Assembly (NCBI GenBank): GCA_016183535.1
Contig: JACPEK010000006.1
Location: 1 to 36,014 of the forward strand
From: Candidatus Brennerbacteria bacterium
GTDB lineage: Bacteria > Patescibacteriota > Minisyncoccia > UBA6257 > GWB1-50-10
Direction of reading: 5' to 3'
DNA: 36,014 bases
This document shows, one piece after another, positions 13,662 to 24,191 of this stretch (within the stretch, counting starts at the first letter, position 1; each line of letters opens with the position of its first letter). Under the pieces are notes generated by a model that was not told where the DNA came from, searched no databases, and was given only the letters and a program-made list of their open reading frames with translations. The translations under genes were made by a program, and so were the position numbers.

Positions 13662-15461
13662 ATGCGCAACGAAAAAAATAAAATCGACAACGTCCGGCAT
13701 TCCCTCGCGCACCTCTTGGCGTGCGCCGTTCTCCAAAAATATCCAAAAGCGAAGCTCGGAATAGGACCAACGATTGAGCATGGTTTTTACTACGACATCT
13801 TGTTCACAAATACGCACGAATCGGGCCACAAATTGGCACGAATCACTGATGCTGATTTCCCGGAGCTTGAAAAAACGATGCGGAAGCTTATTGCGCAGAA
13901 ACTCCCTTTTTCCGGCAGGAAAGTGACGCTCGCGGAAGCGAAAAAAATATTTAAGGACCAGCCGTTCAAACTCGATCTCATCAAAGCATTTACGAGTCCG
14001 CCAGCTGGCGGAAAGAAACAACCATTGACGGTCTACAAAACCGGAGAAGTATTTCTCGATTTATGCAGAGGAGGACATGTAAAAAATACTTCCGAGATTG
14101 ACCCCGACGCTTTCACACTTACCCATCTCGCGGGCGCGTACTGGCGCGGGAGCGAGAAGAATCCCCAACTTACCCGCATTTACGGCCTCGCGTTCAACAC
14201 GAAGAAAGAGCTTGATACGCATCTCGCGATGCTCGACGAGGCGAAAAAGCGCGACCACCGAAAGCTTGGTGTGGAGCTTGAACTCTTCACTTTCGACGAG
14301 CGTGTGGGGAAGGGACTCCCGCTTTGGCTCCCGAAAGGAACCGCGGTAAAAAACGAGATTGAACGTCTCGCAATGGAGAAAGAGGAGCAATACGGTTATG
14401 TTCGCGTCTCAACGCCGCACCTCGCGAAGCAATCCCTCTACGAAACCTCGGGCCACCTTCCTTACTACGCGGACGGCATGTACCCACCTATGAAAATGGA
14501 CGATGGCGCATACTACCTGAAGGCAATGAACTGTCCCCACCATCACGTGATCTACGCAAGCCGCTCTCGGAGCTACCGTGACCTTCCGCTCCGCCTCGCG
14601 GAATACGGCACCGTGTACCGGAATGAGCTTTCGGGTACCTTGGCGGGGCTTCTGCGGGTTCGGATGCTCTCGATGAACGACGCGCATATTTATTGCCGCA
14701 AAGACCAGATCGAGGAAGAATTCAAGCGCGTACTCGCGCTCAACCTCGAGTATTTTAAACTCTTCGGCCTCAAAAACTATTCGTTCCGCCTTTCCCTCGG
14801 CGATCCGAAAAACAAAGAAAAATTTGTGAACGAGCCGGCGAACTGGAAATATGCCGAAGGCGTGCTCCGCAAGATTCTCAAAGCGTCCGGCGTGAAGTTC
14901 GCGGAAACAAGGGGTGAGGCCGCGTTCTACGGGCCTAAAGTGGATGTGCAATTCACTTCGGTGATCGGCCGCGAGGAAACGATGTCCACTATCCAGCTCG
15001 ACTTCGCGGCGAAGAAACGCTTCAACCTCGCGTATCAAGACAAGGGCGGCAAAGAAAATCACGAGGTTTTTGTGATCCATCGCGCACCACTCTCGACTCA
15101 CGAACGCTTCATGGCGTTCCTCTTGGAGCACTATGCGGGTGATTTTCCCGTATGGCTCGCACCTGTGCAAGTAAAAGTGCTCCCCGTCGCCAACGCGCAC
15201 ACGGCGTATGCGGAAAAAGTGTTCGCGGCGCTCATAGAACGGCGCATCCGCGCGGAACTGTCCCCTGCCAATGAAACGCTCGGTAGGCGCATCCGCGCCG
15301 CGGAGCTCCAGAAAATTCCCTATCTTCTCGTCGTGGGAGAAAAAGAGCAGTCCGCACAATCAGTGAACGTGAGAAAACGACACGAGAAAGAAACAAAAAA
15401 CGTATCGCTGGAGCGGTTTACTAAAACGCTCGCCGAAACAATAGCGGCGAGGAAAGAGTAG
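13662..15461 (+). CDS. thrS: Threonine--tRNA ligase (no TGS domain)
   Basis: RHSLAHLLA, DLCRGGH, KAMNCPHH, GLLRVR, FYGPKVD, IHRAPL; start placed 7 nt after TATAAT. Confidence 0.97.
   Translation: MRNEKNKIDNVRHSLAHLLACAVLQKYPKAKLGIGPTIEHGFYYDILFTNTHESGHKLARITDADFPELEKTMRKLIAQKLPFSGRKVTLAEAKKIFKDQPFKLDLIKAFTSPPAGGKKQPLTVYKTGEVFLDLCRGGHVKNTSEIDPDAFTLTHLAGAYWRGSEKNPQLTRIYGLAFNTKKELDTHLAMLDEAKKRDHRKLGVELELFTFDERVGKGLPLWLPKGTAVKNEIERLAMEKEEQYGYVRVSTPHLAKQSLYETSGHLPYYADGMYPPMKMDDGAYYLKAMNCPHHHVIYASRSRSYRDLPLRLAEYGTVYRNELSGTLAGLLRVRMLSMNDAHIYCRKDQIEEEFKRVLALNLEYFKLFGLKNYSFRLSLGDPKNKEKFVNEPANWKYAEGVLRKILKASGVKFAETRGEAAFYGPKVDVQFTSVIGREETMSTIQLDFAAKKRFNLAYQDKGGKENHEVFVIHRAPLSTHERFMAFLLEHYAGDFPVWLAPVQVKVLPVANAHTAYAEKVFAALIERRIRAELSPANETLGRRIRAAELQKIPYLLVVGEKEQSAQSVNVRKRHEKETKNVSLERFTKTLAETIAARKE
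13997..14012. repeat. 16-bp palindrome TCCGCCAGCTGGCGGA, copy inside thrS
   Basis: Identical copies at 27791-27806 and 30253-30268. Confidence 0.9.
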
Positions 15462-18022: not shown

Positions 18023-18081
18023 TGTTCTCATGATACCAACTAAAAAGCTCCTCGACGAGGAGCTTTGCGTGAGCCGAGCAA

Positions 18082-21556: not shown

Positions 21557-22195
21557 TCAACGGAATTTCCTCTTCAAAAGCGCGAAGATCACCAAAACGA
21601 CCGCAAAGATGCCAAGCGCCATCACTATGAAATTCGAAAGCGACGAAAATTGAGCCGCATATTGGGCGTAAGCTCCCCCTACCGACCACCCTAAAAATCC
21701 CATAAGAATCGCCCGCGCAACGCCGCCAAAAAACGTGATGATAATGAACCTTTTCACGGGATACCGCACGATCCCGCAAACCGCAGAGATAAGAAAATTT
21801 GGCGTAATGGGCACCGCGCGAAGCACAAAAATAATTACTTCGTCCGCGCCGCCCCGCGTGAACCGTGCTTCGGCTTGTTCCAACTTTCCCCACGTGAGGC
21901 CGAAAATCTTCCCCCACCGCACAATTGCGGATTTCCCGCCGAGAAAGGCGACGGAATAGACAAAAAGCGAACCCAGGGTAAGTCCCGCGCTCGCCGGAAG
22001 TATCACCTTGAGAAATGCGGGAAGCGCGATCGCGGCGAAATTTTCCCCCTGCGGAATAAGAAAAAAACCCGCCGCCATCAGGGCAAGCGACGACGGCACC
22101 GGCGCCACAATCTCCTCAATGAGCGAGAGGAAGAACACGCCGAGCACCCCGTACTGTTCGACGAGTGGCGCGATTGTTTGAATGAGGGAATCCAT
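21557..22195 (-). CDS. DedA/VTT-domain membrane protein
   Basis: IEEIVAPVPSS, AGLTLGSLFVY, LRAVP; multiple TMs. Confidence 0.85.
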   Translation of the reverse strand: MDSLIQTIAPLVEQYGVLGVFFLSLIEEIVAPVPSSLALMAAGFFLIPQGENFAAIALPAFLKVILPASAGLTLGSLFVYSVAFLGGKSAIVRWGKIFGLTWGKLEQAEARFTRGGADEVIIFVLRAVPITPNFLISAVCGIVRYPVKRFIIITFFGGVARAILMGFLGWSVGGAYAQYAAQFSSLSNFIVMALGIFAVVLVIFALLKRKFR

Positions 22196-22196
22196 T

Positions 22197-22390
22197 TGGT
22201 AGCCCCAAGGAGAGATCGGCTTCGACTCAATTATGCGCCGTCGCGCATAATCGGTCTAGTCACCACCTCGCGCCCCTCGTTGCTACTCGGGACAGGCTCC
22301 GGTGTTCGATTCTCCTTCGCGAGCCAAATAGTTGGCTCGCTTGAGGCAAAAAATCAAAAAGGCGGGGCAAGCCCGCCGCTTTGATTTTTG
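22197..22390. mobile_element. Non-coding hairpin-rich insertion at the tRNA-Glu 3' end, bounded by a 15-bp direct repeat
   Basis: GTAGCCCCAAGGAGA at 22199-22213 and 22390-22404; three internal hairpins. Confidence 0.65.
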
Positions 22391-22462
22391 TAGCCCCAAG
22401 GAGAATCGAACTCCTGTTTGTACCGTGAGAGGGTACCGTCCTAGCCACTAGACGATGGGGCC
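22391..22462 (-). tRNA. tRNA-Glu(CTC)
   Basis: GGCCCCA/TGGGGCT acceptor, GTACC-CT-CTC-AC-GGTAC anticodon arm, AGGAG-TTCGATT-CTCCT T arm; followed by CAA rather than CCA. Confidence 0.95.
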
Positions 22463-22699
22463 AATCAGTCTTTCAATCGCTTCACGCTTCTTCCACGATT
22501 TCACCCGTAATTCTCTTCGGCGCGCTTCTTGTCTTGTAGGAAACGATTCTGTATATACTACCTTCCAAGGTCGGTGTACCTTCGTTGACTTTACCTCACC
22601 GCGATTGTGCTTCGCAAGCCGTTTCTTGATACCTTCCGTTGAACCAACGTAGTAACGTTGATTCTTGAGCGACTCCAAGATATAAAACGTGTGTTCCGT
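22448..22699 (-). CDS. Stand-alone GIY-YIG nuclease (start codon uncertain, possibly defective)
   Basis: TFYILESLKNQRYYVGST...RLAKHNRG...ST...RPW..VY.E....R.EA..RE..VKSWK; frame open up to TGA 22703-22705 with no in-frame ATG; stop lies inside the tRNA D arm. Confidence 0.8.
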   Translation of the reverse strand, partial: TEHTFYILESLKNQRYYVGSTEGIKKRLAKHNRGEVKSTKVHRPWKVVYTESFPTRQEARRRELRVKSWKKREAIERLIGPIV

Positions 22700-22705
22700 A
22701 GATCA

Positions 22706-22838
22706 TCCCGATTTGCTACCACATCGAGGACTCGCGACTCTGTCGGAGCTAGTCCCGATTTCTTCTCCGCTACTGCGGAGCTAAGAAATCGAGGATCCTC
22801 GATTTCTCAACCACGATTCATCGTGGGAGAAATCGGGA
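22706..22838. repeat. Three REP-like palindromes TCCCGAT...ATCG(A)GGA
   Basis: 22706-22730, 22753-22795 and 22796-22838 (the last two form an inverted pair of 43-bp hairpins). Confidence 0.8.
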
Positions 22839-22865
22839 ACGATGGCGCCGTACCTGACTACCAAG

Positions 22866-24191
22866 TTACTCCAATTCTCCGTCATCGTACAATCCCTTCT
22901 CATGGAACCACTGCGGTTCCTGCCGCACGAGAAGTTCCTCGGCGCGCATAGGCTCCCGCATAAACCGCTTCACCACCCGCTCGAGGCGCACCCCTTGCGA
23001 AGCTTTGAAAAGCACAACGTCCCCTTCCTTGAGCGCGTCATCGAGATAGTGCGCGGCGTCGGCGAGGGTAAGAAATGAATGAATTTTCCCTTTCGACATA
23101 CCGCCCGCGAGCGCGGCTTCCGCCGCGAATTTCGCGCGATGACCCACCGTTACCAACACATCGGCGACTTTCGCCGCCTGCGTTCCGATTTCCTCGTGCG
23201 CCGGAACCGTAAACTTTCCCAATTCGAGCATATCTCCCACAACCGCGATTTTTCGGGATCCGCCAAGTTCCTTCAAAGTATCGAGCGCGTCTTTTGTCGC
23301 GAGCGGAGAGGCATTATAGGTCGAATCAACGAGTAACGTACCGCGAATGCCGGGGATCGCCCGTAAACGACCCGGCGGCGTCACGCACGATTCGAGTCCC
23401 GCCGCGATTTCGGCGAGATTCATCCGGAACGCGATGCCCACCGCGGCGGCGGCGCCCGCCGCATACGCCGCGGCAGCCCCGAGCGCGTTTGCCATACGTA
23501 CCGGCACGACGGCGCCGCCGTAGGAAAGTTTGAAGCGAAGTTCCGCATTCCCGTTTTCAAGCACGTTCCGCAAAACCATAAGTTTTACACCCGCTTCTTC
23601 TCCGAACCCAAATGTAATCACTCTCCCCTTCACGAGATTCGCCGCACTTGCCACCTTCGGATCGTCGGCATTCAACACCGCAAATCCATCTTCCGTGACC
23701 GCTTTCACCAGTTTTGTCTTTTCCCGAAACAGCATTTCCGGCCCCGCGAAAAATTCTACGTGCACCGGTATGTCTCCCATCGCGGTCACTACCGCAACAT
23801 CGGGCGCGGCGATCCGAACCAGACGATCCATGTCGCCGGGCCGATCAATGGCGTACTCCAACACCAGCACTTCCGGATATTCCGGGTCGCGCACAATGAG
23901 CCGATAGCACGCAGTGAGAATAACTTCGCACCAGAAGCGCACTCCACCGCTCCGCTCCGTGCCGCTTATGATAGTAAGCGGCACGCCAAGCTCGTTATTA
24001 AAACTCTTTGCGGCGGCGCGCACCCGATACCTTCGCGCGAGCACCGCGCCGATCGCCTCCTTCGCGGACGTCTTGCCAACGTTACCGGTCACTGCCACTA
24101 CGCCCGGCGTATACCGCAGGATGGTGAGGCGCGCGAGGAGCCTCAATTTCCACATGAGAAGCTTGAGAAGCAATAATTTCATTCCACTCAT
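22866..24191 (-). CDS. murF: UDP-N-acetylmuramoyl-tripeptide--D-alanyl-D-alanine ligase
   Basis: VTGNVGKTSAKE, SFNNELGVP, DSTYNASP, GDMLELG, FKASQG. Confidence 0.92.
   Translation of the reverse strand: MSGMKLLLLKLLMWKLRLLARLTILRYTPGVVAVTGNVGKTSAKEAIGAVLARRYRVRAAAKSFNNELGVPLTIISGTERSGGVRFWCEVILTACYRLIVRDPEYPEVLVLEYAIDRPGDMDRLVRIAAPDVAVVTAMGDIPVHVEFFAGPEMLFREKTKLVKAVTEDGFAVLNADDPKVASAANLVKGRVITFGFGEEAGVKLMVLRNVLENGNAELRFKLSYGGAVVPVRMANALGAAAAYAAGAAAAVGIAFRMNLAEIAAGLESCVTPPGRLRAIPGIRGTLLVDSTYNASPLATKDALDTLKELGGSRKIAVVGDMLELGKFTVPAHEEIGTQAAKVADVLVTVGHRAKFAAEAALAGGMSKGKIHSFLTLADAAHYLDDALKEGDVVLFKASQGVRLERVVKRFMREPMRAEELLVRQEPQWFHEKGLYDDGELE

Follow-up and report, generated by a model that had tools for sequence, protein, structure and literature searches.

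Some integrative elements insert at tRNA genes and make the gene whole again with a copy of one end, usually the 3' end, and SegB of phage T4, a nuclease of the GIY-YIG class, has an extra DNA-binding part. SegB is described as a free-standing, site-specific GIY-YIG endonuclease that is associated with a tRNA gene cluster and homes between co-infecting phages (PMC2330249). Hairpins are linked to a GIY-YIG enzyme in the Ssn family (CDD cd10448), which includes SsnA of Neisseria meningitidis with its NTS/SRM hairpins; SsnA binds an oriented hairpin, and cuts beside it, only as single-stranded DNA (PMC11893778). That paper likens its system to IS200/IS605 and REP/BIME, and the analogy of a GIY-YIG enzyme with REP-associated transposases is already in print in its Discussion. 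The word "tRNA" does not occur in its main text, and a passage of its supplement treats SLX1-like bacterial proteins as a sparsely characterised sister clade (PMC11893778).

The locus considered here lies in the window, a stretch of 36,014 nucleotides from a 0.6-Mb genome (designated G000) whose relatives are Patescibacteria. Past murF sits what is probably an inserted cassette: hairpin doublets together with a GIY-YIG gene of a single domain and a new 5' end for tRNA-Glu. The system works like Ssn/NTS and looks like REPIN/RAYT, but on the features compared here it falls outside both families. As in Ssn, the window protein is a small, single-domain GIY-YIG protein with a Y6/Y17/E63-64 catalytic set, and its gene adjoins oriented hairpin repeats that are also found elsewhere in the genome. 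However, the SRM motif, searched for with our own reading of the published pattern, was absent within ~500 bp of the window locus and present at only 1 of 138 homologous loci. As a proxy for the SsnA clade, three GIY-YIG proteins with NTS flanks, all from viral contigs, stood in for the Neisseria protein; they formed a clade of their own (support, 99 to 100) and were 30 to 35% identical to the window protein. Furthermore, the predicted structure of the window protein (pLDDT 94.5, one domain) had UPF0213 and Slx1 as its best folds (matches to 1zg2 and Slx1).

The resemblance to REPIN/RAYT, as described in PMC3116915 and PMC3733652, lies in inverted short-hairpin doublets as the apparent moving unit, scattered without a gene, and in a candidate enzyme gene beside some copies. 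The window enzyme is a GIY-YIG hydrolase rather than an HUH Y1 transposase, however, and window-type doublets split tRNA genes, can hold a gene or a whole tRNA in their loops and have a low copy number, ~1 to 28 pattern matches per genome. No RAYT-type Y1 transposase (PF01797) was found in G000; Y1 genes were found in three of the five genomes searched. With SegB, too, a GIY-YIG gene with patchy inheritance is tied to tRNA genes (PMC2330249), and the window gene, like genes of Seg-type homing endonucleases, is present or absent at one site among relatives. In contrast to SegB, the window protein consists of 83 aa with only the catalytic domain and no separate DNA-binding domain, and its gene is chromosomal, overlaps the tRNA and is accompanied by hairpins. 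The cassette resembles tRNA-integrating elements in that the insert is bracketed by a partial copy of the tRNA and leaves a whole tRNA behind, but it measures ~390 bp, lacks an integrase and duplicates the 5' end. A tRNA-splitting, tRNA-replacing nuclease-hairpin form was not found in the open-access literature searched, and term searches of PMC12455944 and 10.64898/2026.09.22.753630 gave nothing relevant to it.

Structure and occupancy of the murF–tRNA-Glu site

The first-pass annotation had described a GIY-YIG frame whose end uses the first 15 nt of tRNA-Glu, a second copy of the tRNA 5' end split by an 86-bp inverted hairpin pair and, hence, a nuclease gene between direct repeats of the tRNA 5' end. 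All of these features were confirmed. The frame ends in ...LIGPIV*, and its TAG (22450–22448) is nt 13 to 15 of the intact tRNA. The upstream copy consists of GGCGCCATCGT and CTAG, with a gap of exactly 86 bp; the rough probability of finding by chance an 11-mer with at most one mismatch within 200 nt, followed by CTAG at a fixed position, is ~6e-6. The 86 bp comprise two 43-bp hairpins, head to head, with a DNA fold of -31.6 kcal/mol; both are bulged (TCCCGAT...ATCG-A-GGA), and there are no duplicated bases at the insertion point. A third palindrome, reported to abut the gene start, is indeed present, but it is one half (22730–22706) of a second, shorter doublet. The probable remnant TGATCT corresponds to TGGCTA in the intact tRNA and TGGTCA in the tRNA of G002, a genome of the same genus. 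With both doublets taken out, ~20 nt resembling a tRNA 5' end remain, and the identical split position of the tRNA copy was also found in three other genomes. When positions 22000 to 23100 were searched with the curated RNA models of Rfam 15, only the tRNA reached threshold, and neither the hairpins nor the element 3' of the tRNA had a match.

Table 1. Features of the murF–tRNA-Glu site, in window coordinates and in order along the minus strand
Feature	Position	Strand	Basis or remark
murF (host gene, upstream flank)	22866..24191	-	Pfam Mur_ligase_M/C
tRNA-Glu 5' end remnant, nt 1-11, one mismatch	22839..22849	-	tRNA start position in empty G002 site
Hairpin doublet 1 (86 bp), interrupting the remnant after nt 11	22753..22838	-	
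Remnant nt 12-15 (CTAG)	22749..22752	-	
Hairpin doublet 2, 43 bp, short, degenerate; halves 22748-22731 and 22730-22706	22706..22748	-	
Probable remnant nt 16-21 (TGATCT)	22700..22705	-	assigned by eye
Single-domain GIY-YIG nuclease gene, 83 codons	22448..22699	-	PF01541
Intact tRNA-Glu(CTC)	22390..22462	-	ARAGORN; Rfam RF00005, 59.8 bits
Terminator-like hairpin 3' of tRNA-Glu	22349..22389	-	
Separate non-coding element 3' of tRNA-Glu, outside nuclease unit	22199..22345	-	
dedA/VTT-family gene, downstream flank	21557..22195	-	

The window protein matched PF01541 with 65.1 bits (cut-off, 22.6) over residues 4 to 73 of 84, whereas an NCBIfam search gave nothing above cut-off. Residues Y6, Y17, G19, R27, H31, E63 and K67 are all intact, and the catalytic Tyr, Tyr, Gly, Arg, His and Glu are each kept in 116 to 119 of 119 aligned homologues. 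The gene has no in-frame ATG, GTG or TTG ahead of the first catalytic tyrosine; an ACG (22699–22697) occupies the position at which nine relatives have ATG. Six close database relatives (74 to 81% identical, one of them the same protein as that of locus L001) all start with ATG and end in LIGPIV or LIGSIV, and ATG starts were likewise present in the copies of G061 and G005 and in two more distant database hits. An assembly error as the source of the ACG was rejected, as contigs from two sequencing runs, possibly the source samples, were identical to the window over 22221 to 23100. Because ACG replaces the ATG, and the next start, a TTG at 22678, would drop the first catalytic tyrosine, the reading frame suggests that the window copy is probably silent or weakly expressed. 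The locus is a real representative, probably in decay, of a nuclease-hairpin system that is widespread and associated with tRNAs.

In G002, the nearest relative, the site is empty: tRNA-Glu begins 12 bp past murF, and the dedA ATG comes straight after the tRNA. The window 5' remnant begins 16 bp past the murF stop, where the G002 tRNA begins, and therefore marks the original start of the tRNA gene. The dedA ATG directly follows a second tRNA 3'-end copy in the window and the single tRNA in G002. A MurF match was found in 91 of 96 family genomes searched, of which 85 were assessable at the site and 6 were not. A tRNA-Glu was called within 1.4 kb downstream of murF in 83 of the 91, and two further genomes were scored by eye (one with tRNA-Glu overlapping murF, one with tRNA-Glu cut by the contig end). 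Only 5 of the 85 assessable genomes had a GIY-YIG gene after murF, so that the gene is not conserved at this locus; vertical conservation had been named as an observation that would tell against a mobile unit. With the empty G002 site, this low occupancy and the tRNA enrichment described below, the original proposal that a nuclease and palindromes had been inserted as a unit at a tRNA 5' end was supported.

Four of the occupied genomes (G000, G005, G061 and G101) have the same doublet at the same position, and their nucleases form one clade (support, 81 and 94 in two quick trees). In a quick MurF tree, these genomes fall in four lineages, each beside genomes without the nuclease gene. The fifth, G067, has a nuclease of another clade and another palindrome at the same site. 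Identity among the four was 56 to 74% for the nuclease and 50 to 60% for MurF, and GC3 in three of the four genomes was 0.44 to 0.49 for the nuclease versus 0.66 to 0.82 for murF. Four-fold sites were 31 to 54% identical, near saturation, which indicates that any transfer is old; recent horizontal transfer was not supported. The distribution reflects either long-past movement, with purifying selection at work, or an early presence followed by many losses; insertion is favoured, although the gene may also have been inherited and repeatedly lost via the direct repeat. Two other murF–tRNA-Glu sites hold possible relics: a doublet inside a 3' duplicate of the tRNA (L253, G099) and a 5' duplicate without a nuclease gene (L241, G090).

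Nuclease homologues, hairpins and split tRNA genes

A survey of small GIY-YIG genes for overlap with tRNA 5' ends and for flanking palindromes had been suggested with the initial description. Collection by protein similarity alone yielded 155 loci with 138 distinct proteins, and 113 loci had 200 bp on both sides. An ARAGORN tRNA call lay within 200 bp in 87 of these 113, a count that includes the window and some hairpin-plugged pseudo-tRNAs, compared with ~4% expected by chance for a 250-bp gene placed in the window's genome. The tRNA was just downstream in 45 of the 113 loci and just upstream in 39, and the stop codon was inside the tRNA in 20. An upstream copy of the first 10 nt of the tRNA (at most one mismatch) was present at 30 of the 45 loci with a downstream tRNA. 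Both tRNA proximity and tRNA duplication were therefore enriched around the homologues, and a lack of such enrichment had been named as an outcome that would refute the proposal. Nuclease subclades tend to have a tRNA type in common.

The window genome contains two more small GIY-YIG genes, one of them broken beside an assembly gap. The other (G000 C5:106947-107171, minus strand) separates smpB from tmRNA, and a GC-rich palindrome immediately precedes tmRNA. In G001 (L521, C13:3100-3400), a gene of another GIY-YIG clade is flanked on one side by a 5' remnant that has a palindrome plugged into it and on the other by an intact tRNA-Ala(TGC); the same locus has a nested form in G000 and a plain tRNA in G002.

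The hairpin pattern TCCCGAT-N(8-38)-ATCGAGGA was found in 33 of the 96 genomes, and the reversed control gave no hits. At least three extra pairs beyond the pattern were present in 48 of 63 distinct matches examined, and T-A, C-G, G-C and A-T pairs all occurred, which indicates that the shape of the hairpin is conserved while its sequence varies. About 11 of the matches are attributable to chance. In the typical fold, a bulged A follows the first 3 bp; then come ~9 bp, a bulge of 2 nt in the 3' arm, 5 to 7 bp and a small loop. Copies are often head to head. Inverted doublets forming hairpins were also dispersed without a gene, in both orientations and away from tRNAs; only 14 of 61 hairpin rows, which include duplicates and many copies from genome G064, were within 400 bp of a tRNA. 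A looser pattern had 10 hits in the window genome, and 6 of them lay no more than 400 bp from a tRNA, a zone that makes up 4.8% of the genome (0 of 18 in shuffles); these six are at Glu, Val, Ala and Thr genes.

Three further tRNA genes of the window genome are split by gene-free doublets. At L511 (C3:94236-94378) and L512 (C2:45600-45754), the loop of the second hairpin holds an intact tRNA-Thr(TGT) and an intact tRNA-Ala(TGC), respectively; each is enclosed by an older copy that is split in the anticodon loop and yields a valid tRNA when the doublet is removed. The nested Thr gene is not identical in sequence to the native Thr gene that G001 and G002 have kept. At L513 (C5:42776-42859), the doublet splits the 5' end of the native tRNA-Val, and an intact tRNA-Val(TAC), distinct from the native one, comes after it. 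In the same-genus genomes G001 and G002, the corresponding native Thr and Val genes are unsplit, as is the Ala gene in G002. In all 10 remnants, chosen for having a doublet, removal of the doublet left tRNA-like sequence with no duplicated bases, and in three of four nested cases it left a whole ARAGORN-called tRNA; these three are all split between anticodon positions 35 and 36. An intact tRNA of the same amino acid was beside or inside every split copy examined.

The window-type hairpin flanks 14 of the 146 GIY-YIG loci on the tree, and 10 of the 14 are in two subclades, one of which includes the window. For the 12 rows with the window-type label alone, the tree required 4 changes versus 11.4 when labels were shuffled (0 of 500 shuffles), and for six palindrome labels jointly it required 19 versus 42.1, with the reservation that the labels were set after the data had been seen, the trees were quick and based on 85 to 86 columns, and kin have labels in common. 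Thus, the correlation of palindrome families with GIY-YIG clades that had been raised as a check was found, the palindrome family following the clade. Other nuclease clades have palindromes of their own. In a neighbouring subclade, the first hairpin of five loci (L005, L093, L122, L509 and L510) encloses the nuclease gene in its loop, and the start and end of the gene fall within the hairpin arms or next to them; at four of the five, the second hairpin holds a tRNA-Ala. This position of the gene within a hairpin loop is the strongest link between hairpin and enzyme, and it is a physical one. At L475, L477, L494 and L497, genes of a GIY-YIG subclade are bracketed by CCCGTTAGAGA / TCTCTAACGGG inverted repeats that include the gene end; L475 has no tRNA nearby.

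No close member of the window's nuclease subclade was detected in most of the hairpin-bearing genomes. A clear exception to the pairing of hairpin and enzyme is G064 (88% complete), which has 28 pattern matches, many of them nearly identical and most of them away from tRNAs. The single GIY-YIG gene detected in this genome is of another subclade and has its own repeats, for which reasons it was dropped as the partner of the G064 doublets. About 14 near-identical doublets in this genome (L454-L467), many of them right after TAG or TAA and with a TRAGTA-like flank on the opposite side, look like a young REPIN-type expansion away from tRNAs.

The nuclease had also been put forward as the driver of palindromes in thrS, dnaJ, dnaK and gatB, which was not supported. 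Compared with G002, thrS and dnaJ have short in-frame inserts containing TCCGCCAGCTGGCGGA (13997 and 30253), a family other than the hairpin of the window locus. TCCGCCAGCTGGCGGA is a perfect palindrome at 13997, 27791 and 30253, and its family has 23 hits in the genome versus 3.6 in shuffles. This family flanks 18 of the 146 GIY-YIG loci, all other than the window locus, so that a related enzyme may still be involved. The only hairpin in dnaK is short, unrelated and in the tail of the gene. The gatB palindromes (18044-18066 and 18120) are upstream of the probable start, and the first has a TCCTCG/CGAGGA core in common with the doublet junction.

The non-coding element 3' of tRNA-Glu consists of a small hairpin, a reverse complement of the T-arm (22315-22301), inner hairpins and a tRNA 3'-end copy (22218-22199), with CCGGAG and GAGGCGGTG as conserved motifs. 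Further copies are located at G000 C5:129407-129300 and at L533, L534, L536, L540 and L542. Among 10 pattern hits, the element follows seven tRNA genes, with a nuclease gene near only one, and in relatives it is found 3' of Gly, Lys, Trp and Glu tRNAs that have no nuclease gene; it is therefore independent of the cassette. No gene linked to the element was found. The 3' duplication was rejected as part of the nuclease unit, as it occurs without the nuclease and the G005 cassette is without it.

Candidate mechanism and alternatives

It appears somewhat likely that the locus is a selfish cassette, in which the nuclease would nick single-stranded DNA beside its own hairpin, host recombination would paste the cassette, and the carried piece of tRNA would both aim the insertion and repair the target. 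By analogy with SsnA, the nuclease may recognise the bulged hairpin in single-stranded DNA, and we infer that after the predicted nick hairpin-bounded pieces would be pasted into tRNA genes by host recombination. GIY-YIG enzymes hydrolyse DNA and are not known to rejoin it, so insertion would need host repair; the homology that the tRNA copy in the cassette has to the resident tRNA could guide that repair. The cassette would be tolerated because a whole tRNA is restored, and the stop codon of the nuclease within the restored tRNA would tie gene and tRNA together. Gene-free doublets may be non-autonomous passengers, like REPINs.

The main rival is that the doublets are REPIN-like and are moved by another enzyme, e.g., a Y1 HUH transposase, with the GIY-YIG gene being a separate tRNA-homing endonuclease like T4 SegB; the doublets would then collect in dead tRNA copies because insertion there is harmless. 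Insertion of doublets without target duplication also fits an HUH transposase, and the G064 expansion occurs in a genome with a Y1_Tnp gene in which no nuclease of the window subclade was found. The many doublet copies away from tRNAs and the tendency of nuclease clades to track tRNA type also agree with two separate systems. We nevertheless consider this explanation unlikely. All five Y1_Tnp loci were without a window-type hairpin within ~1.5 kb, Y1_Tnp was not found in G000 or G041, both of which have doublets, and the explanation is difficult to reconcile with gene ends built into the hairpin arms in the neighbouring subclade and with other nuclease clades that have their own palindromes. 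Less probable still is that the hairpins act as RNA, the doublets being removed or recognised in pre-tRNA and the split copies being intron-like and functional. The three nested cases that rejoin to valid tRNAs at the same split position agree with such an arrangement, but the window remnant of only ~20 nt cannot give a tRNA, doublets are found in both orientations and outside tRNAs, the split copies examined are accompanied by intact tRNAs of the same amino acid, and SsnA does not bind RNA (PMC11893778). The RNA explanation is accordingly regarded as very improbable.

An old arrangement that serves the host by tuning how single-stranded DNA is taken up or recombined, the role of SsnA in Neisseria, could have been present early in the family and been lost often via the repeated tRNA ends. 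It draws on the SsnA precedent, on purifying selection with saturated silent sites, on the clean loss that the direct repeat permits and on the 5' remnant without a nuclease gene in G090. Many independent losses among ~80 genomes would be required, however, and a host function does not readily account for the different nuclease clade at the same site in G067 or for a copy number of 0 to 13 per genome among 41 genomes. We therefore judge it quite improbable, though not as remote as the RNA explanation.

The selfish cassette may also belong to a more general form of minimal mobile DNA, a possibility that we entertain only tentatively. An 83-residue nuclease, with neither transposase nor integrase, would read a hairpin shape and a short fixed foot and move cargo into tRNA genes, and each nuclease clade would have its own hairpin. 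The hairpin-bounded cargo would then comprise the nuclease's own gene and whole replacement tRNA genes.

Implications for small GIY-YIG proteins and tRNA genes

To our knowledge, small bacterial Slx1-like GIY-YIG proteins are abundant but without an assigned role. For one Slx1-like clade, the locus offers a bulged hairpin of conserved shape as a candidate substrate and tRNA genes as a target, along with matched empty sites. The 83-aa protein and one oligonucleotide suffice to test the candidate substrate, and, if the proposed activity is real, the clade could become a source of many very small, hairpin-addressed single-strand nucleases. What this locus contributes is a matched empty site, a site-level count of occupancy, a match of clade to hairpin, and the gene-in-loop forms, which connect the pattern of nucleases at tRNAs with that of nested tRNAs.

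If the proposed mechanism is correct, HUH transposases are not the only class of enzyme through which palindromic repeats can spread. Two patterns seen apart in these bacteria, nuclease genes at tRNAs and tRNAs nested in split ones, would then be one system that keeps replacing essential tRNA genes. The cassette would also account for those split and duplicated tRNA genes that are overlooked or wrongly called by annotation tools. Bacteria with reduced genomes would, in that case, turn over their tRNA genes through selfish cassettes.
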